Assembly (NCBI GenBank): GCA_964635905.1
Contig: CAZWPK010000004.1
Span: 25,012 to 89,011 of the forward strand
DNA length: 64,000 bases
Direction: 5' to 3'
Source of the DNA: an uncultured Pseudomonadales bacterium
GTDB lineage: Bacteria; Patescibacteriota; Microgenomatia; UBA1400; UBA12028
The notes beneath the pieces are model-generated. The model was not told the origin of the DNA. It did no database searches and was given only the letters and a program-made list of their open reading frames with translations. This document shows, piece after piece, positions 36,991 to 61,939 of this stretch; the stretch's first letter is position 1, and every line of letters starts with the position of its first letter. Position numbers and translations under genes: made by a program.

Positions 36991-37214
36991 GCGACGCTTC
37001 AGAACCAATTTTTATCACTCCTAAAACAGATCTTGTTCTCCTGGAAGATCGCTATGGTCTAGACGCGCTTCGTGGGGCAATGGATGATCCGAAACTCCCT
37101 GCAGAGATTCAATCAATTGTAGCGTTCTACGTACTATCAACTTCGAGTGGAACAGAGTTGAAGCGAGCAGTTGTTTCTGAATATCCAGCTGGATGGAAAC
37201 AGAGACGTCAATAG
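36987..37214 (+). CDS. Small hypothetical protein
   Basis: 75 aa ORF ATGA-coupled to mltG; acidic, no motif. Confidence 0.3.
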   Translation: MSDASEPIFITPKTDLVLLEDRYGLDALRGAMDDPKLPAEIQSIVAFYVLSTSSGTELKRAVVSEYPAGWKQRRQ

Positions 37215-37285
37215 TTCTTAGAGAATGTATCTGTGATGGTAGACACAGGAAATATTCAGCTTCTAAGCGTACAATAGCATACGTG

Positions 37286-38851
37286 ATGATGCTTAAACTC
37301 TTGATTCCCGTATTGGCACTTCTTGGTCTACTTGATGCCGGGTACCTTACCTATGAAAAAATGATGGGAATCGTTCCTCCCTGCAGCCCATCCTTTGACT
37401 GTGAGACGGTATTGCAGAGTTCTTGGTCATCCATCGGACCCATTCCTGTCTCGGTGATGGGGATGCTTTACTATACTGTCATCTTGTTTTTGGGAAGCCT
37501 TCTTGTTCTGGATGTGAAAAACATTCCATTTCGAGGACGTGGTGTCTCCCTATTTCAGATCGTGCGATTCGTCTCTACTGTTGGCTTTTTAAGCTCAATG
37601 GGGTTTGTGTATCTGATGGCGGTTGTGATTCAAGCCTGGTGTCCCTATTGTGTAATCTCCGCTGGAATTAGTACGGTTCTCTTCCTGATTGTGTATCTCT
37701 TGTCGCGCAGTCGCACCCAAAGTACCCAAAGAGTCTCAGAGTATCCCTTAAATCTGGCATTCTTTGCTTTTGTCTATCAGGTTCTCTTAAAACCAATTTT
37801 ATTTCGGTTTAACCCGGAAACGATTCATCATCTCTTTGTTCGGTTTGGAAAAATACTCGGGATGACTCCAGCAACGCGGGCATTAACACGTTGGTGTTTT
37901 TCCTATCCCAATTCTGTCCCCATTGTTCTTGCTGGTATCGATTTCACAAACAAAGTTGGATTATCCGCAGGGTTTGACTATGATGCGGACCTTACGCAGA
38001 TTCTTCCGGACATCGGTTTTGGGTTTGCAACCCTGGGTACAGTGACATTGCACCCATATGAGGGGAACACCCGACCAATGCTCACGCGCTTTCCAGACTC
38101 AAAAGCGCTTTTGGTAAATAAAGGCTTTAAGTCCATCGGAGCCCCTGCGGTGATTGCGAAACTAGAAGGGCAGACCTTTCGAATTCCCATTGGTATTAGT
38201 ATCGGGAGCACCAATAAGATTTTTAACTCCTCCAAGGAACAGATCGATGATGTGGTAAAAACTTTTCGGCTGTTTGAAGCTTCCAGTGTTGCGCACTCCT
38301 ACTATGAATTGAATATCAGTTGTCCCAACACCAAAGGAGGACAACCCTTTACGGATGCGAAGCGCTTAGATGCACTGCTCAAAGCCTTACGAGTGCTCCA
38401 GATTCAAAAGCCCGTGTTCGTCAAACTTCCCATCGATCTTGCGGATGGCTTAAGTCGGGCGACTACCCATACACAGCTACTCTCCCTGGTAGACCGAATG
38501 TCAAAAGAACCCTGGATCGTTGGCCTCATCAGTGGCAATTTAACTAAAGATCATGAAAATACTTCCGTTTCCACTTCCGACCGCACACAATGGAAGCAAC
38601 GCAAAGGAGGAATTAGCGGGAAACCTACCTTTGAACGCTCTAATCTCCTTATTTCCGCACTCCGCAAACGCTTTAGGTCTCGTTTTCTTATTATTGGGAC
38701 AGGAGGGGTTTTTTCCGGCGAGGATGCGCTAACAAAGCTTTCATCGGGAGCGGACCTTGTGCAGTTAATTACAGGAATGATCTATCAAGGCCCGCAGGTA
38801 ATTGGAGATATTAATTGGGTCCTCTCGGGAAAAGACTCTAAAAAAAAGTGA
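37286..38851 (+). CDS. Fusion protein: N-terminal VKOR (vitamin K epoxide reductase/DsbB-like) membrane domain + C-terminal family-2-like dihydroorotate dehydrogenase (FMN TIM barrel)
   Basis: VKOR: loop Cys pair 'PPCSPSFDC', TM CXXC 'AWCPYCVISAG'. DHODH: 'LFRFNPETIHHLFVRF' (quinone-site helices), 'GIDFTNKVGLSAGFD', 'GFGFATLGTVTLHPYEGNTRPMLTRF', 'LVNKGFKSIG', 'ELNISCPNTKG', 'GGISGKP', 'IIGTGGVFSGEDA...LVQLITGMIYQGP' match E. coli PyrD block by block. Confidence 0.75.
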   Translation: MMLKLLIPVLALLGLLDAGYLTYEKMMGIVPPCSPSFDCETVLQSSWSSIGPIPVSVMGMLYYTVILFLGSLLVLDVKNIPFRGRGVSLFQIVRFVSTVGFLSSMGFVYLMAVVIQAWCPYCVISAGISTVLFLIVYLLSRSRTQSTQRVSEYPLNLAFFAFVYQVLLKPILFRFNPETIHHLFVRFGKILGMTPATRALTRWCFSYPNSVPIVLAGIDFTNKVGLSAGFDYDADLTQILPDIGFGFATLGTVTLHPYEGNTRPMLTRFPDSKALLVNKGFKSIGAPAVIAKLEGQTFRIPIGISIGSTNKIFNSSKEQIDDVVKTFRLFEASSVAHSYYELNISCPNTKGGQPFTDAKRLDALLKALRVLQIQKPVFVKLPIDLADGLSRATTHTQLLSLVDRMSKEPWIVGLISGNLTKDHENTSVSTSDRTQWKQRKGGISGKPTFERSNLLISALRKRFRSRFLIIGTGGVFSGEDALTKLSSGADLVQLITGMIYQGPQVIGDINWVLSGKDSKKK

Positions 38852-39099: not shown

Positions 39100-42000
39100 A
39101 TGCAAACACTACGCCAATATTGGGGAAAACAAGACATCAAACTCCCGAAACTTGACCTTACACGTGTGCAACGTGAATCGTATGAATGGTTCCTCAAGGA
39201 AGGCATTCAAGAAGCCCTCAATGAAATTAATGCCGGTAATGGCATTGAAGACTTCACACGAAAGAACTGGAAGCTGGAATTTGGAGAATTTTCTTTAGGG
39301 AACCCTAAGATTTCTCCCGCAACCGCACGTCGTAAAGCCTTAACTTATGACATGCCGTTACGTGTCATGGCAACCTTGACGAATAAACAAACCGGTCAAC
39401 AAACTCGTCAAGAAGTCTTTTTAGGTGATATTCCTAAAATGACCCAAACGGGAACATTTATTATTAATGGTGTTGAACGTGCCGTCGTAAACCAGCTCGT
39501 TCGTGCTCCTGGAATTTTCTACTCCGCCGATATTGATCCCAACACGGGTCGCAGTCTGTATCATGCAGAACTTCGTCCCCTTCGTGGATCTTGGTTAGAA
39601 TTGTCGGTTGGTCGCGGAGATGTGATCACCGTCAAGATTGATAAACATCGAAAAATCGCAGTCACAACTCTCCTTCGAGCCTTAGGCTATGCCTCCAACG
39701 ATGATATCGTGGGTATGTTCTCCGATACGGATAAAAACCCCGATCATCAATACATTCAAGCAACGCTTGCCAAAGACACCACCGCAACGACTGCGGAAGC
39801 GTTGTTGGAAATCTACGAAAAAATGCGTCCTGGGGAACCAGCCGTCTTAGAGAATGCAACCGAACTGTTAAACGAACTGTTCTTTGATCCTCGTCGCTAT
39901 GACTTGGGCAAAGTTGGTCGGTACAAGATGAACCGACGACTCAAAGTGAATATTCCGAACGAAAAAGAGAACCATGTCTTGACCAAAGACGATATTATTG
40001 CCGCGATTAAATACTTAATTGGACTCCAGAATGGTCAAGGAAAAGTGGATGATATTGATCACCTCTCGAACCGTCGCGTCCGTCGAGTCGGTGAATTAGT
40101 GTTAACCAACGCCTTTAGAATTGGATTACTCCGGTTGGAACGTGCGATTCGTGAAAAAATGTCACTGTCCAAGACCGATGAATTATTGACACCAAGTTCA
40201 CTCGTCAACGCACGACCATTAATAGCGACAATTTCAGAATTCTTCCGACGAAATAGACTCTCTACCATTTTGGATCAAACCAATCCTCTTTCCGAAGTGG
40301 ATAACCTCCGTCGTTTGTCCGTGATGGGATCTGGTGGTGTGACCCGAGAACGTGCCAGTTTCTCCATGCGTGACATTAATGCCTCGCAATATTCTCGTAT
40401 TGACCCGGTCCGGTCTCCAGAAGGACAAAACATCGGATTGGTGACCTACATGTCCTTATATTCACGCGTTAATGACTATGGCTTTTTGGAAGCTCCGTAT
40501 CGTCAAGTGATTAAAGAAGAGAAAAATGGAAAAGTACTCATGCGTGTATCGGATGAGATCGTCTACATCGCTGCTGACGAAGAAGAAGATTACGTGATCA
40601 CCCACGCTGGAATTGATATCGATGCCAAAGGATACATTTCTGATGAATGGGTTCCATTTAGAACGGGAAACGAATTCTTAGAAGGATCTGTCGAACGTGT
40701 CCAACTGATTGACATCGTTCCACGCCAAGTCGTAGGAACCTCTGCCTCGTTGATTCCATTCGTGTCGCATGACGAAGCGATTCGTGCCTTGATGGGTACC
40801 CACATGCAATGTCAGGCTGTTCCACTCTTAAAGCCAAGTAGTCCGGTCGTCGGAACTGGGATGGAAGGCTCTGTTGCCGCAGCCATGGGACGTGTTGTCT
40901 ATGCTCGCCATGAAGGAACCGTTGACTTTGTTGATGGAAATAAAGTGGTCGTCACCTTAAATGACAGTGAAGTTACCGCCTTAAAGACCGAACAACTAGA
41001 AGAAAATGAATACGTGCATGTTGAAGGTAAAAAAGAAATTTATTCTATTGTGAAGTTTTACCGTACCGCTCAGAGTACCTGTTACTCTCAAAAACCAATG
41101 GTAACGGTAGGTCAAAAAGTACAACGTGGAGACATCCTCATTGATGGACCATCGTCACAAGGTGGAGAACTTGCATTAGGACAAAACCTACTGATTGCCT
41201 ATACTTCCTATGAAGGATTAGGTTACGAAGACGCGATCATTATTTCAGATCGATTAGTGAAGCAAGATTTGCTCACATCCATTCATATTAATGAGTATGA
41301 ATGCCAAGTGATGGATACAAAACTTGGGCCTGAAGAGCTGACTGCTGATATTCCCAACGTTTCTGACATCGAGCGACGTAACTTAACCACAGACGGAATT
41401 GTGGCAATTGGAAGTGAAGTCAGTCCAAACGATATTTTGGTGGGAAAGATTGCACCTAAAGGTGAAACTGAATTGACCGCTGAAGAACGATTACTTCGTG
41501 CTATTTTCGGAGAGAAAGCTCGAGAAGTCCGTGATACCTCGCTGCGTATGCCACATGGTGAATCCGGAACGGTGATTGATGTCAAAATCTTGGATCGAGA
41601 AAAAGGTGATGAATTAGATCCAGGGGTCAACAAAGTCGTGACGGTCAAAGTTGCCATTATTCGTAAGGTAACGGTCGGAGACAAGCTTGCGGGACGACAC
41701 GGGAACAAAGGTGTGATCAGTAAGATTGTTCCTCAAGAAGATCTTCCATACTTAGAAGATGGAACACCTGTCGACATTATTATTTCTCCATTGTCCGTGC
41801 TTGCCCGTATGAACTTAGGTCAGCTCTTGGAAGCACATTTGGGCTGGGCAGCAGAAAAGTTGGGTTACAAAGTGGCAGTCCCCGTCTTCGAGGAAGTCTC
41901 TGAAGACAAGATTACCTCCGAGATGACAAAAGCAGGCCTTCCAGTTTCTGGAAAAGTACGCTTGTATGACGGAAAAACTGGAGAATCGTACAGTGAAGAC

Positions 42001-42570
42001 TCCGTGGTCGGTGTCGGATATATCTTGAAACTCATTCACATGGTGGATGACAAGATGCATGCTCGATCAACCGGACCATACTCTTTAGTTACGCAACAAC
42101 CATTAGGAGGAAAAGCTCAAATGGGTGGACAGCGACTAGGAGAAATGGAAGTTTGGGCCTTAGAAGCACATAAGGCAGCCTATACCTTACAAGAAATGTT
42201 GACGATTAAATCGGATGACGTGTTCGGTCGAACCAAAGCTTTCGAGGCAATCGTGACCGATCAAGTGATTCCAGCAAGTTCAATTCCAGAATCATTTAAG
42301 GTCTTGATGCGAGAACTCAATTCGTTGGGACTCGATGTCGTCATGATGGAACCAGAAATCGTTGAAACCAAAGAGGACGTAGGAACCAAGGAAAACTTGA
42401 CCGATGCCAGTGGCCAAACGGTAGTGGCAGATGATCCGAGCATGATCTCAGATGCTCCGAGTGAGGATGCGGGTGGTGTAGTAACGGGAGAAGAAGATAA
42501 CTTTGAACAAGCCCAAGAAGTAGAGGACGACCGAGAACCGTCTGCAGAAGATTTGGCCGAGGAAGTCTAA
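39100..42570 (+). CDS. rpoB: DNA-directed RNA polymerase subunit beta
   Basis: 1156 aa; 'GTFIINGVERAVVNQLVRAPG', 'NRRVRRVGELV', 'GGQRLGEMEVWALEA'; acidic C-terminal tail. Confidence 0.95.
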   Translation: MQTLRQYWGKQDIKLPKLDLTRVQRESYEWFLKEGIQEALNEINAGNGIEDFTRKNWKLEFGEFSLGNPKISPATARRKALTYDMPLRVMATLTNKQTGQQTRQEVFLGDIPKMTQTGTFIINGVERAVVNQLVRAPGIFYSADIDPNTGRSLYHAELRPLRGSWLELSVGRGDVITVKIDKHRKIAVTTLLRALGYASNDDIVGMFSDTDKNPDHQYIQATLAKDTTATTAEALLEIYEKMRPGEPAVLENATELLNELFFDPRRYDLGKVGRYKMNRRLKVNIPNEKENHVLTKDDIIAAIKYLIGLQNGQGKVDDIDHLSNRRVRRVGELVLTNAFRIGLLRLERAIREKMSLSKTDELLTPSSLVNARPLIATISEFFRRNRLSTILDQTNPLSEVDNLRRLSVMGSGGVTRERASFSMRDINASQYSRIDPVRSPEGQNIGLVTYMSLYSRVNDYGFLEAPYRQVIKEEKNGKVLMRVSDEIVYIAADEEEDYVITHAGIDIDAKGYISDEWVPFRTGNEFLEGSVERVQLIDIVPRQVVGTSASLIPFVSHDEAIRALMGTHMQCQAVPLLKPSSPVVGTGMEGSVAAAMGRVVYARHEGTVDFVDGNKVVVTLNDSEVTALKTEQLEENEYVHVEGKKEIYSIVKFYRTAQSTCYSQKPMVTVGQKVQRGDILIDGPSSQGGELALGQNLLIAYTSYEGLGYEDAIIISDRLVKQDLLTSIHINEYECQVMDTKLGPEELTADIPNVSDIERRNLTTDGIVAIGSEVSPNDILVGKIAPKGETELTAEERLLRAIFGEKAREVRDTSLRMPHGESGTVIDVKILDREKGDELDPGVNKVVTVKVAIIRKVTVGDKLAGRHGNKGVISKIVPQEDLPYLEDGTPVDIIISPLSVLARMNLGQLLEAHLGWAAEKLGYKVAVPVFEEVSEDKITSEMTKAGLPVSGKVRLYDGKTGESYSEDSVVGVGYILKLIHMVDDKMHARSTGPYSLVTQQPLGGKAQMGGQRLGEMEVWALEAHKAAYTLQEMLTIKSDDVFGRTKAFEAIVTDQVIPASSIPESFKVLMRELNSLGLDVVMMEPEIVETKEDVGTKENLTDASGQTVVADDPSMISDAPSEDAGGVVTGEEDNFEQAQEVEDDREPSAEDLAEEV

Positions 42571-46350: not shown

Positions 46351-46953
46351 TTGTTTGGGTATCATTTGGGAATGAAATCACTGACGCTCGATCAAGTTAA
46401 AATCGCCATTACTTTGGGTACGATCGCAATTGCGATTGTTCATATCTGTTTTCCAACCTTAGGTATCGACACCACAACATTGGTTTTGATCGGAATTGCG
46501 ATTTTTCCTTGGATTTTCCCCATCCTTAAATCCATTGAGTTTCCTGGAGGTTTAAAGATTGAAATGGCCGACTTACAAAAATTAGGGATGGAGGCGAAGG
46601 AATCTGGGCTATTGGAACGAAAGAAAAAACCAACCAAAAAATCCTATCCCTTTGAACAAGTGACGCAAGTGGATCCTAATTTAGCTCTCGCGGGACTGCT
46701 AATCGAAATTGAAAAAGTATTACACAAAATAGCTGAGAAGAATTCGATCAAAAATTCATCGTCCTCCGTACTTTTGATTCGTCATATGGTCCGGGATGAT
46801 ATTCTGTCGGTGGAAGAGGGTGTAGTCCTCTCGGACCTTCTCACTTTATTATCCCAAGCTGTCCATGGTGCGGTGGTGGACCCCGAGGCTTCTGCCTGGG
46901 CAATCACGACCGGAATCTTAATTCTAGAAGCCTTAGAAGCGCGATTAAGTTAG
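46351..46953 (+). CDS. Hypothetical membrane protein (2-3 N-terminal TMs + soluble C-terminal domain)
   Basis: 'IAITLGTIAIAIVHICF', 'LVLIGIAIFPWIFPIL' TM segments; no motif; lies between rpoC and rpsL. Confidence 0.4.
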   Translation: MFGYHLGMKSLTLDQVKIAITLGTIAIAIVHICFPTLGIDTTTLVLIGIAIFPWIFPILKSIEFPGGLKIEMADLQKLGMEAKESGLLERKKKPTKKSYPFEQVTQVDPNLALAGLLIEIEKVLHKIAEKNSIKNSSSSVLLIRHMVRDDILSVEEGVVLSDLLTLLSQAVHGAVVDPEASAWAITTGILILEALEARLS

Positions 46954-50361: not shown

Positions 50362-50796
50362 ATGAATGAGAACACTCATCCGTTGTCTCTCTACTTTCAG
50401 TTACGAAATATCCAGTATGGAAAGGAAAGAAAAGATACTGAGAGGTTAAATGATCGAAAGGGAGAAGTCTCTACCAGAAAGAAACTGGAAGGACATTATT
50501 TGTCAGCGCTACGGTATAAAGTTGAGCATATGCAGAAGTATTTGGATGCATTACTCTCAACCGAGGATGGAAATTCTGATCTAGCATTTCTTGCAATTCG
50601 AGGGTTTAACCTAACCTTACAAGAAACTATTATCGCTGCCGAGCAAGAAGCCGTTGCACTTATTGAAGAATGGAATACAAGTGCGGAACCAAAAGACTGG
50701 GTAAATAAATCGCTAAACAATATTGGGAATGAACTACTGAGTTTGTTTGATATAGAACAGAAAAAAGATAAGTTTATTAGTTCAAGAAGAAACTAG
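50362..50796 (+). CDS. Hypothetical protein inserted between fusA and tuf
   Basis: 144 aa ORF starting 4 nt after the fusA stop; helical, K/E-rich; locally AT-rich. Confidence 0.4.
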   Translation: MNENTHPLSLYFQLRNIQYGKERKDTERLNDRKGEVSTRKKLEGHYLSALRYKVEHMQKYLDALLSTEDGNSDLAFLAIRGFNLTLQETIIAAEQEAVALIEEWNTSAEPKDWVNKSLNNIGNELLSLFDIEQKKDKFISSRRN

Positions 50797-52066: not shown

Positions 52067-52092
52067 TCTTGGTTATTTTAAACCGAACTTTA

Positions 52093-52125
52093 AAAGCCCT
52101 TCCCGTAAAACGGAAGGGCTTTTTG
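52093..52125 (+). terminator. Rho-independent terminator after tuf
   Basis: aaaagcccttccg-taaaa-cggaagggcttttt. Confidence 0.7.
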
Positions 52126-52325
52126 TATAGTGAAGAAGCCTGTGTAATCCCCGAAGAGTGGTTCTTGTAGGTATTTAAACTTGGTTGTTTGTATCAGTGG
52201 TGGAGTTAATAAGTATAATGCCTAATTACCTCGAGTGAAATGGAGAAATACCAATCAGTACCTGGCAATTTTCATACGAAAGTGTTGTGTTCTGTTTGTG
52301 TAGTGTTTTCCTCTAGATCCTCCTC

Positions 52326-52354
52326 TTGTCACCAGAGAAAGGCTGGTATATAAT
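52326..52354 (+). promoter_or_regulatory. sigma-A-type promoter of the S10 operon (TTGTCA-17-TATAAT)
   Basis: -35 52326-52331, -10 52349-52354; ~45 nt upstream of rpsJ inside a 330-nt leader. Confidence 0.5.
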
Positions 52355-52398
52355 ATTTTTCTTGCTCTTTGACAGTAAGAACTTAGTTAATATTTGGT

Positions 52399-58236: not shown

Positions 58237-58539
58237 ATGAAATTTAAAGCTGGCGATAATGTACAGGTAACCGCAGGAAAAGACAATGGAAAGCATGGAA
58301 AAGTGCTCAAGGTCTATCCAAAAGAAGAGAAAGTTCTCGTTGAAGGCGTGAACATGTACGTGAAGCATGTTAAACCAATACAAGGACGATCTGGTGAAAA
58401 AATTCGCAGAGAACGACCATTGCACACTGCCAGTGTCGCAATCATGAACCCCGATACCGGAAAAGTGGACCGTATCGGATACAAGATGGAAGGTGGAGAG
58501 AAAGTGCGTATCTTTAAGAAGACTGGGAAGGCAATTTAA
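58237..58539 (+). CDS. rplX: 50S ribosomal protein L24
   Basis: 'MKFKAGDNVQVTAGKDNGKHGKVLKV' KOW motif. Confidence 0.9.
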   Translation: MKFKAGDNVQVTAGKDNGKHGKVLKVYPKEEKVLVEGVNMYVKHVKPIQGRSGEKIRRERPLHTASVAIMNPDTGKVDRIGYKMEGGEKVRIFKKTGKAI

Positions 58540-58543
58540 ACAT

Positions 58544-58834
58544 ATGGGAGAAACTCTAAGTAAAGTCGAACTTTTAGAAGTTTTTCATATGGAGCATGTA
58601 GATCGTTTGTGGGGTACTAACACACCTGGATATATTGTAACTTTGGCAACAGCTGGAAAAAACGGAGAAACATTGTATCTGAATGATTCTGCTTTTGCCA
58701 AACAGAACTTAGCAGGAATTGAGCGTAGCAATAGAGGAGATGTAATTAGGCTTACTGCTATACGTGATGCAGACGGAAAATTACTAGATATTGCAGACTT
58801 TATGGCACTTTATAGAGGCGTAGATAGAGATTAA
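58544..58834 (+). CDS. Hypothetical protein inserted between rplX and rplE
   Basis: 96 aa ORF starting 5 nt after the L24 stop and ending 5 nt before the L5 start; no motif. Confidence 0.4.
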   Translation: MGETLSKVELLEVFHMEHVDRLWGTNTPGYIVTLATAGKNGETLYLNDSAFAKQNLAGIERSNRGDVIRLTAIRDADGKLLDIADFMALYRGVDRD

Positions 58835-59603: not shown

Positions 59604-59996
59604 ATGATTACTGATCCAATCGCAGACATGCTCACCAGAATCAAGAATGCCTATATGGCTCGCAAAGAATCGGTTATTATGCCGTATTCTAAAGTCAAAG
59701 AGTCCATTGCCAAGGTACTAATTGAACACAAGTACATCAAAGATGCACAGATGCAGGAGATTGAAGGAAAAAAGAATCTCATGGTTACCTTATCCTATAT
59801 GGGTAAAACACCTGCAATGACCGATGTAAAACGGGTGAGTAAACCAGGACTACGAAGATATTCTGGAGTTGATACCATCAAGCGCACATTGGGTGGATAT
59901 GGAATAACCATTGTTTCTACCAGCCAAGGTGTGATGGACGATAAATCAGCCAAAAAGAAAAACATTGGAGGCGAAGTACTTTGCCAAGTGTGGTAA
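59604..59996 (+). CDS. rpsH: 30S ribosomal protein S8
   Basis: 'MITDPIADMLTRIKNAYMARKESV' S8. Confidence 0.95.
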   Translation: MITDPIADMLTRIKNAYMARKESVIMPYSKVKESIAKVLIEHKYIKDAQMQEIEGKKNLMVTLSYMGKTPAMTDVKRVSKPGLRRYSGVDTIKRTLGGYGITIVSTSQGVMDDKSAKKKNIGGEVLCQVW

Positions 59997-60008
59997 AAAG
60001 GAATACCT

Positions 60009-60269
60009 ATGAATAGTTCAGAATTTTCACCCAAAAATGTAGAAGAAAGTCGTGAAACACTTGTTGATTGGGCAGAGGAAGTTGCTACAAGAGAAATTGA
60101 AACGGGAACCGAAATTAGTAGTGGATTGCTTATTCAAAATGAAATCGCGTGGATCATTAACGTGCTAGCTGCGGACGAATACAAGTTTGAAGGGTACTCA
60201 CTCACCAAAGAGGAGCGAGAATCATATGAACAAAGAATAAATCAGTTATATGAGATATGGGGAATGTAA
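60009..60269 (+). CDS. Small acidic hypothetical protein inserted between rpsH and rplF
   Basis: 86 aa, strongly acidic ('EESRETLVDWAEEVATREIETGTE'); in-operon spacing of ~12 nt on both sides. Confidence 0.4.
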   Translation: MNSSEFSPKNVEESRETLVDWAEEVATREIETGTEISSGLLIQNEIAWIINVLAADEYKFEGYSLTKEERESYEQRINQLYEIWGM

Positions 60270-60284
60270 TTAAAGAAATAATGT

Positions 60285-60836
60285 ATGTCAAAAATCGGAC
60301 GTCAAATTATTGAAATACCAGCGGGAGTCACCATTACGGTTGCTTCCAATACCATTACGGTCAAAGGTCCAAAGGGAGAACTGTCAACTCCTACAATGCC
60401 AGGGATTACACTGACGGTTGCAGATGGCAAAGGAACTATCACTCGAAACAGTGATCTACCTCCTATGCGCGCTGCACATGGATTGATCCGTTCCTTGGTT
60501 GCCAACATGGTCAAAGGGGTTACCGAAGGCTTTGAGAAGCGTTTGGAAATGGTTGGAACCGGATATCGTGTTACCGCCAAAGGCCAAGGGATTTCGCTCT
60601 CTGTGGGTTTTTCCCATCCAGTCGATGTGGTTCCCCCAAAGGGCATTACCTTTACAGTAGAGGGTAACAACAAGATCATTGTCAAGGGAATTGATAAAGG
60701 ACTAGTTGGACAAATTGCTTCCAACATTCATGAAGTCCGACCTCCTGAGCCCTATAAAGGCAAAGGAATTAAGTACGAAAACGAGATTATTCGACGTAAA
60801 GCAGGGAAAGCAGCCAAAGCTGCAGGATCTAAGTAA
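60285..60836 (+). CDS. rplF: 50S ribosomal protein L6
   Basis: 'MSKIGRQIIEIPAGVTITV...VKGPKGEL' L6. Confidence 0.95.
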   Translation: MSKIGRQIIEIPAGVTITVASNTITVKGPKGELSTPTMPGITLTVADGKGTITRNSDLPPMRAAHGLIRSLVANMVKGVTEGFEKRLEMVGTGYRVTAKGQGISLSVGFSHPVDVVPPKGITFTVEGNNKIIVKGIDKGLVGQIASNIHEVRPPEPYKGKGIKYENEIIRRKAGKAAKAAGSK

Positions 60837-61210: not shown

Positions 61211-61939
61211 ATGGATAAAAAACGTTTTGAACGCAACCAAGAACCAAAAGAATTTGACGAGAAAGTCGTCCAAGTTAGTCGTGTTTCTAAAAAGACAAAA
61301 GGTGGAAACAAAATGGGATTTTCAGTGCTCATGGTTGTGGGAGACAAAAAAGGTCGTGTCGGAGTGGGACTTGGTAAGGCCAAGGACGTCCTCTCTGCCA
61401 TCCGTAAGGGTGTAAAGAAAGCAAAGCGCAAACTTATTAGTATCCCAATGAATGGAACTACCATTCCGTTCCCCATTGAAGTGAAGTTGGGAGCCGCCAG
61501 TGTCTTGCTTAAACCCGCTCCAAAGGGAAGTGGAATTATTGCTGGTGGTCCTATCCGCAGTGTCGTGAATGCTGCAGGAATTCGCGATATCAGTAGTAAG
61601 ATCAAAGGTTCCAACAACAAAGCCAGTAATGTGTATGCAACTTTTGAAGCCCTAAAGCAAATTACTCGACTTGTTGAACACAAGGGCATTAAATTAAAGT
61701 CTGTTGTTCAAGTGGAGGAAGAAGAGAAACAGAAGTTAAGAGAATTAGATAAGAAGGCAGCCAAACCACAAGTTGAAGAAAAGAAAACAGCGCAGCCAAC
61801 TGCTCATCGACGTCCGGCTCCTGCTCGACGACCCGCCAAAGAGGCAGTCAAAAAAGAAGTAGCCCCAGTAGAAGCAAAAGCGGTAAGAGAGCAGCCAAAA
61901 GAAGAAGTGAAGGTTGAAGAAACTAAGAAGTCAGAATAA
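61211..61939 (+). CDS. rpsE: 30S ribosomal protein S5 with ~80-aa Lys/Glu/Pro-rich C-terminal extension
   Basis: 'VVQVSRVSKKTKGGNKMGFSVLMVVGDKKGRVGVGLGKAKDV' S5 core; tail 'EEEEKQKLRELDKKAAKPQVEEKK...'. Confidence 0.9.
   Translation: MDKKRFERNQEPKEFDEKVVQVSRVSKKTKGGNKMGFSVLMVVGDKKGRVGVGLGKAKDVLSAIRKGVKKAKRKLISIPMNGTTIPFPIEVKLGAASVLLKPAPKGSGIIAGGPIRSVVNAAGIRDISSKIKGSNNKASNVYATFEALKQITRLVEHKGIKLKSVVQVEEEEKQKLRELDKKAAKPQVEEKKTAQPTAHRRPAPARRPAKEAVKKEVAPVEAKAVREQPKEEVKVEETKKSE

Follow-up and report, generated by a model that had tools for sequence, protein, structure and literature searches.

A small acidic orphan gene between rpsH and rplF in the spc operon of a Woesebacteria-like bacterium

The rpsH–rplF junction and ORF86

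Few gene orders in prokaryotes are as well conserved as that of the S10 and spc operons. In a 64,000-nucleotide stretch of an uncultured bacterium (contig CAZWPK010000004.1 of assembly GCA_964635905.1, positions 25,012 to 89,011, hereafter the window), an additional gene, here termed ORF86, lies between rpsH and rplF of the spc operon. An earlier model-made annotation from the letters alone, hereafter the sequence-only reading, had described an 86-aa open reading frame (ORF) at this junction, on the same strand as its neighbours and tightly packed between them, as a second insertion in the spc operon with a very acidic product. Each of these points held: the flanking spacers are 12 and 15 nt, the other insertion is found between the L24 and L5 genes (58544-58834, 96 aa), and the predicted product has a pI of 4.19 and a net charge of -12 (19 Asp/Glu versus 7 Lys/Arg), its predicted peptides including LLIQNEIAWIINVLAADEYK. 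The features of the junction are as follows.

59604..59996, + strand: rpsH (ribosomal protein S8), 5′ neighbour of ORF86 (Pfam PF00410, E=1.4e-45)
59997..60008, + strand: 12-nt spacer from the S8 stop codon to the ORF86 ATG, read from the sequence
59998-60002, + strand: Shine-Dalgarno-like AAGGA, 6 nt 5′ of the ORF86 ATG
60009..60269, + strand: ORF86, orphan protein-coding gene, ATG to TAA, 86 aa, from the ORF listing and the sequence
60054..60119, + strand: codons 16-37 of ORF86, a fast-evolving segment that covers the second half of acidic helix 1 and the following loop
60120..60266, + strand: codons 38-86 of ORF86, the conserved C-terminal two-thirds, spanning hydrophobic helix 2 and helix 3
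60270..60284, + strand: 15-nt spacer from ORF86 to rplF, ending in an AATGT-ATG context, read from the sequence
60285..60836, + strand: rplF (ribosomal protein L6), 3′ neighbour of ORF86 (Pfam PF00347, E=2.5e-38)

ORF86 occupies 261 of the 288 nt that separate the S8 and L6 genes. Comparison of upstream regions across the operon revealed that the AAGGAAT preceding ORF86 is the same motif that stands 5′ of tuf and of the L15 gene, and the AATGT-ATG start context is common to the S8, L6 and L18 genes. In the sister species (locus L001) the ortholog of ORF86 follows the S8 gene after a spacer of 10 nt containing GGGAAT. Consensus scans predicted neither promoter-like nor terminator-like sites on the + strand at the borders of ORF86, so we infer that it shares the spc-operon transcript, with its translation directed by its own AAGGA site. 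Its GC content (0.38) and its GC content at third codon positions (GC3, 0.31) are slightly below those of the neighbouring genes, most of which have a GC3 of 0.33-0.45. No repeats or mobile-element genes were found flanking ORF86, and no DNA paralog or source sequence of it was found within the 64-kb window.

Constraint on ORF86 and its distribution

Chance does not readily account for a reading frame of this length at the junction. Among 5000 dinucleotide-preserving shuffles of the S8–L6 gap, just 0.04% contained an ORF of at least 86 aa on the + strand (P=0.0004), the mean longest ORF being 32 aa. An ortholog, P0002, which is 84% identical, likewise 86 aa long and recorded as a hypothetical protein from a Candidatus Woesebacteria bacterium, is encoded at the same S8–L6 junction in GCA_018060955.1 and GCA_020047435.1. 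Identical copies of ORF86 were recovered from the Logan assemblies SRR8893623, SRR31757420 and SRR31757421 and from an NCBI source, and recurrence of the unchanged allele in independent assemblies rules out an assembly artefact.

The two alleles differ at 29 nucleotides, distributed 5/7/17 over the three codon positions; frame +1 is the sole open frame, and there is no indel within the ORF, with a 2-nt indel in the 12-nt upstream spacer. The ratio of nonsynonymous to synonymous substitution (dN/dS, Nei-Gojobori method) was 0.32 with Jukes-Cantor correction and 0.37 without, which is below neutrality (binomial P=0.005). ORF86 is thus a genuine coding gene under moderate purifying selection. As the dN/dS values of fifteen neighbouring genes ranged from 0.00 to 0.14, it is constrained yet evolves several-fold faster than its neighbours. 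Divergence is concentrated in codons 16-37, where the ortholog has replacements at 10 of 22 residues (ratio of nonsynonymous to synonymous proportions, pN/pS, 0.58; nucleotide identity 76-79%). Codons 38-86 carry three replacements, leaving 46 of 49 residues identical (pN/pS 0.23, pS 0.11; nucleotide identity 96-97%). An uneven pattern extends beyond ORF86: between 59400 and 61000, gene ends and junctions are 96-100% identical to L001 at the nucleotide level and gene centres 69-83%, and synonymous divergence along the operon ranges from a dS of 0.02 (S14) to 1.05 (SecY). This mosaic suggests either recombination between the lineages or strong mRNA-level constraint around sites of putative translational coupling.

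Searches beyond the sister species yielded little. A word-indexed search of 5.8 billion proteins returned ORF86 itself and P0002 alone, and when 1.84 billion cluster representatives were searched exhaustively with a HMMER profile, the P0002 cluster was the sole relative returned. Two further hits of the profile, P0123 and P0124, were rejected as homologs, being tandem-repeat proteins of 925 and 1111 residues with scores summed from 10-13 weak repeats. There were zero matches in Pfam (E≤1), NCBIfam, PHROGs, PADLOC or the sequences of the PDB, and an alignment of ORF86 found no relative in the JGI metagenomes or IMG/VR. As far as sequence comparison reaches, ORF86 is an orphan, its detectable homologs being confined to a narrow lineage; it stands for a new family of orphans that is unusually placed.

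To place the insertion, relatives were chosen by ranked L6 homologs and eight operons were fetched (L086-L091, L214 and L215; L6 66-76% identical). This comparison of the S8–L6 junction, which the sequence-only reading had proposed, found ORF86 kept in the sister species and its site empty in all eight relatives, where the S8–L6 spacer measures 4-69 nt. These eight empty junctions place the gain of ORF86 on the ancestral branch of the window species and its sister. The longest of these spacers, the 69 nt at L088:2932-3000, contains no ORF and bears a short inverted repeat (cccgagatgcaatctcgagg); the junction is thus able to expand without acquiring a gene. Among 187 other bacterial loci the S8–L6 junction never exceeded 200 nt.

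Other spc junctions of the same clade carry inserts of their own, as listed below (coordinates are those of each locus).

L086, 1023-1307, same strand: L14–L24 junction, 94 aa
L086, 1616-1849, same strand: L24–L5 junction, 77 aa
L086, 3561-3788, same strand: L6–L18 junction, 75 aa, acidic
L086, 4150-4416, same strand: L18–S5 junction, 88 aa
L088, 3911-4117, same strand: L18–S5 junction, 68 aa
L091, 2540-2791, same strand: L24–L5 junction, 83 aa
L091, 7413-7748, same strand: secY–adk junction, 111 aa
Window, 58544-58834, + strand: L24–L5 junction, 96 aa from the ATG, the ORF extending to a GTG at 58493

The L24–L5 ORFs form one family, the L086 and L091 members being 47% identical (E=3e-22) and the L091 and window members 34% identical (E=8e-6); this family is absent from the sister L001 and from five other relatives. 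The window member matched no Pfam, NCBIfam, PHROG or PADLOC family, its sole match in the word-indexed search was a 99%-identical copy, and its single-sequence AlphaFold2 (AF2) model was unusable, with a predicted local distance difference test score (pLDDT) of 40.5. Apart from this family, local alignment tested against shuffled sequences showed no similarity among the inserts or between any of them and ORF86, the acidic 75-aa L6–L18 ORF of L086 included, and the clade inserts matched no Pfam or PHROG family. The spc junctions of the clade hold at least six independent, unrelated insert families. From L14 to S5, 9 of 70 junctions in the clade exceed 200 nt, each with a same-strand ORF of 68-96 aa, as against 1 of 987 junctions (203 nt) at 190 loci of other bacteria. 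These control loci came from a contig scan with the L6 protein, in which the matches listed were mostly Actinobacteria and Firmicutes, and from a metagenome scan with an S8 C-terminal pattern, which yielded no closer relatives (best L6 identity <59%) and whose loci were used as controls. In the literature we found no report on small ORFs inside spc operons of the candidate phyla radiation (CPR), a coverage that is incomplete and hence weak evidence of novelty.

Candidate roles of ORF86

The AF2 model of ORF86 (pLDDT 70.7) comprises three helices (residues 8-32, 37-57 and 67-84), of which the conserved C-terminal part is the best modelled (pLDDT 81-86). Structure prediction with a fold search, also proposed by the sequence-only reading, ended without a specific match: the predicted fold is a generic three-helix bundle, matching nothing in BFVD with E<1, and the immunity protein Tsi6 was one among 791 generic helical fold matches.

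The reading that we prefer, with a probability of about 0.7, is that ORF86 is a lineage-restricted orphan gene riding the spc operon in a pair of Woesebacteria-like CPR species. The gene would have been gained at the rpsH–rplF junction in the common ancestor of these two closely related species, and would be carried on the spc-operon mRNA with its own AAGGA ribosome-binding site. Its small, strongly acidic product would consist of three helices, with a conserved hydrophobic core of helices 2 and 3 and a fast-evolving acidic helix 1. Small same-strand genes would be captured or born here and carried along by the operon's strong transcription, as opposed to being recruited into a core ribosomal role. 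Because at least six unrelated orphans occupy differing junctions in the clade, hitchhiking on the operon most likely explains the position of ORF86, which probably says more about a permissive, highly transcribed operon than about a partnership with S8 or L6. The gene may have arisen de novo from an expanded spacer or come by transfer from an unsampled source; either origin is compatible with the data.

Several observations weigh against this reading. The dN/dS of ORF86 is 3-30 times that of its neighbours, which fits a weak or decaying function; the selection test compares two alleles with 29 substitutions; and the frame stays open in 16% of random mutants carrying that number of substitutions. 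The low pS of the 3′ half (0.11) is common to other gene ends in the operon, and recombination or mRNA-level constraint, as opposed to protein constraint, could lie behind the low divergence there. The excess of long junctions in the clade has a Fisher P of 1.4e-10, a value that is indicative, ignoring shared ancestry and relying on a taxonomically uneven control set. As to function, our tentative best guess, and one more probably wrong than right, is that ORF86 is a dispensable acidic binding protein made together with the ribosomal proteins; its partner would be basic, for example a ribosomal protein in its free form or some other surface that binds nucleic acid. This role is proposed from charge, size and location, with low confidence.

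The hitchhiking orphan reading accords with what is familiar from orphan bacterial genes, with which ORF86 shares a narrow lineage, short length, low GC3 (0.31), faster evolution than its neighbours and an empty outgroup site. It differs from typical orphans in residing inside a highly conserved operon between essential ribosomal genes instead of in a variable region, and in being accompanied by other, unrelated orphans in the same operon of related lineages. Foreign genes do occasionally enter this cluster, as in Gammaproteobacteria and Bacilli, where the insertions are metabolic genes (tusDCB, bfd-bfr, nrdHEF and ilv-leu) placed mostly between operons (PMC8046335); unlike these, ORF86 is a small orphan between adjacent ribosomal protein genes within the spc operon.

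A closer tie to the ribosome was considered, namely that ORF86 encodes a lineage-specific ribosome-associated protein, either a new accessory ribosomal protein or a factor dedicated to chaperoning or assembling a neighbouring product such as S8 or L6, whose synthesis the operon location would keep in step with that of the ribosomal proteins. There are precedents for such additions. The archaeal spc operon holds extra genes, eS4 at the L24–L5 junction and eL32 and eL19 at the L6–L18 junction, and B. subtilis encodes the L7Ae-like YbxF/RplGB between rpoC and rpsL; all four are non-universal same-strand genes co-expressed within the str/S10/spc supercluster. Some of the clade inserts lie at junctions where archaea gained ribosomal protein genes, the L24–L5 junction being the site of the eS4 gene. 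The position of ORF86 in the operon, its tight packing, its own Shine-Dalgarno sequence, the purifying selection on it and a strong negative charge suited to basic ribosomal proteins are all in keeping with the proposal. The four precedents, unlike ORF86, are well-defined and widely conserved families with known ribosome binding; none of them is located at the S8–L6 junction, and ORF86 has no Pfam match to them. Moreover, ORF86 is confined to two sister species and absent from relatives whose L6 is 66-76% identical, its non-synonymous evolution is about 3-4 times faster than that of S8 and L6, no ribosomal protein family or fold was matched, and the remaining clade inserts are unrelated and patchy. 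We therefore regard a ribosome-associated role as unlikely.

The sequence-only reading had placed the product in the size and charge range of immunity proteins, antitoxins and anti-sigma proteins. In its fuller form, this explanation would have ORF86, an orphan, encode an antitoxin or an immunity, anti-sigma or anti-defence protein; a mobile element or phage may have delivered it, and it would take advantage of the operon's expression. The fast-evolving acidic helix 1 is the sole hint in this direction, and the pN/pS of that segment is 0.58, not above 1. No gene for a cognate toxin, effector or sigma factor adjoins ORF86, both neighbours being ribosomal, and the absence of family matches (PADLOC included), of an IMG/VR relative and of flanking repeats or mobile-element genes speaks against it as well. 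Immunity proteins and antitoxins such as Tsi6 differ from ORF86 in having an adjacent partner gene and a family, and its resemblance to Tsi6 is the non-specific one described above. The proposal is left unsupported, and we judge it quite improbable.

It is still less probable that ORF86 is non-functional, being neutral or decaying DNA, or a cis-acting RNA, in which the frame has been kept by chance. The elevated dN/dS, the 16% of random mutants that retain the frame and a 3′-half nucleotide conservation that could act at the RNA level are the points in its favour. They are countered by the rarity of a gap-spanning ORF among shuffles, by the third-position bias with a dN/dS significantly below 1, and by an ortholog of equal length whose ORF is free of indels despite the 2-nt indel in the spacer. 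A structured or cis-regulatory RNA at this site was examined and rejected: Rfam gave no match to the region at E≤1 or at the gathering threshold, and the RNA is predicted to fold less stably than shuffled sequences (z=+1.0 and +1.3).

The sequence-only reading had also remarked that no genes for L7/L12, L10, L1 or L11 precede rpoB in the window. The genes before rpoB (39100-42570) encode a dihydroorotate dehydrogenase/vitamin K epoxide reductase (VKOR) fusion, YceG, RuvX and a sortase, and tblastn with approximate E. coli queries found none of the four genes in the 64 kb, which bears the remark out. Nor were rplJ or rplL found in the stretch of about 5 kb searched 3′ of secY, which holds an ordinary adk-map-infA-S13-S11-S4-rpoA-L17 order. 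The further suggestion, that ORF86 replaces the acidic stalk protein bL12 (L7/L12), which it resembles in being small, acidic, helix-rich and encoded among translation genes in a window where rplKAJL stands neither before rpoB nor elsewhere, is highly improbable, as it fails on profile match (no L12 or L12_N Pfam signal at E≤1, 0 NCBIfam families and no meaningful BLASTP match to an approximate E. coli L7/L12 sequence), on architecture (an all-helical model with neither a hinge nor an alpha/beta C-terminal domain), on genomic location (between rpsH and rplF, not beside rplJ) and on conservation (absent from eight relatives, with no clade-wide retention), and as bL12 is reported to be retained in CPR bacteria, where it is listed as present and enlarged, the reported losses being uL30, bL9, uL1, bS21 and others (PMC9297842).

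Other features of the window and significance of the inserts

Further observations were made along the window. A 144-aa ORF (50362-50796, +) begins 4 nt 3′ of fusA (EF-G) and stops 91 nt short of tuf; unexpected in a str operon, it matched no Pfam, PHROG or PADLOC family. A 200-aa ORF with a TTG start (46351-46953, +) is located between rpoC and rpsL; the N-terminal third of its product is hydrophobic, and it gave no significant family match. The fusion of VKOR and dihydroorotate dehydrogenase directly 5′ of rpoB is a 552-aa ORF (37193-38851, +). Between tuf and rpsJ (S10) there is a 332-nt gap (52067-52398) that contains no ORF above 44 aa and, at the gathering threshold, matches nothing in Rfam; it is presumably the promoter and leader of the S10 operon. 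Two ribosomal proteins are extended: L22 (55805-56326) by about 60 C-terminal residues with an HDHDHDHAHE motif and a Lys/Thr-rich tail, an extension that is also fast-evolving (84% identity to L001), and S5 (61211-61939) by about 70 C-terminal residues rich in Lys, Glu, Pro and Ala. The S5 gene is followed directly by that of L15 (61939-61953, 13-nt gap) with no L30 gene between them, an adjacency that fits a CPR/Patescibacteria origin; among named relatives the closest is a Candidatus Woesebacteria metagenome-assembled genome.

Taken alone, ORF86 encodes a hypothetical protein with two known alleles, and its interest is modest. Its value is that of a clean, datable example, with the outgroup sites empty and the sister species keeping the gene under selection. 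Greater interest attaches to the clade-wide pattern of inserts. A bolder and rather unlikely view, somewhat better than the antitoxin explanation in our estimate, is that the spc operon of this clade acts as a nursery or landing pad for small new genes, some of which would by now encode lineage-specific proteins associated with the ribosome, with ORF86 and the more widely conserved L24–L5 family being new accessory ribosomal proteins or acidic chaperones dedicated to basic ribosomal proteins. If this were true, bacteria would be repeating the addition of eS4, eL32 and eL19 to the same operon that took place in archaea and eukaryotes. More generally, the inserts raise the question of lineage-specific protein partners on CPR ribosomes, which are known to lack uL30 and bL9, and a clade with at least six unrelated orphans between its ribosomal genes lends itself, as a compact system, to the study of gene birth or capture, and of how new genes come to be expressed, in streamlined genomes.
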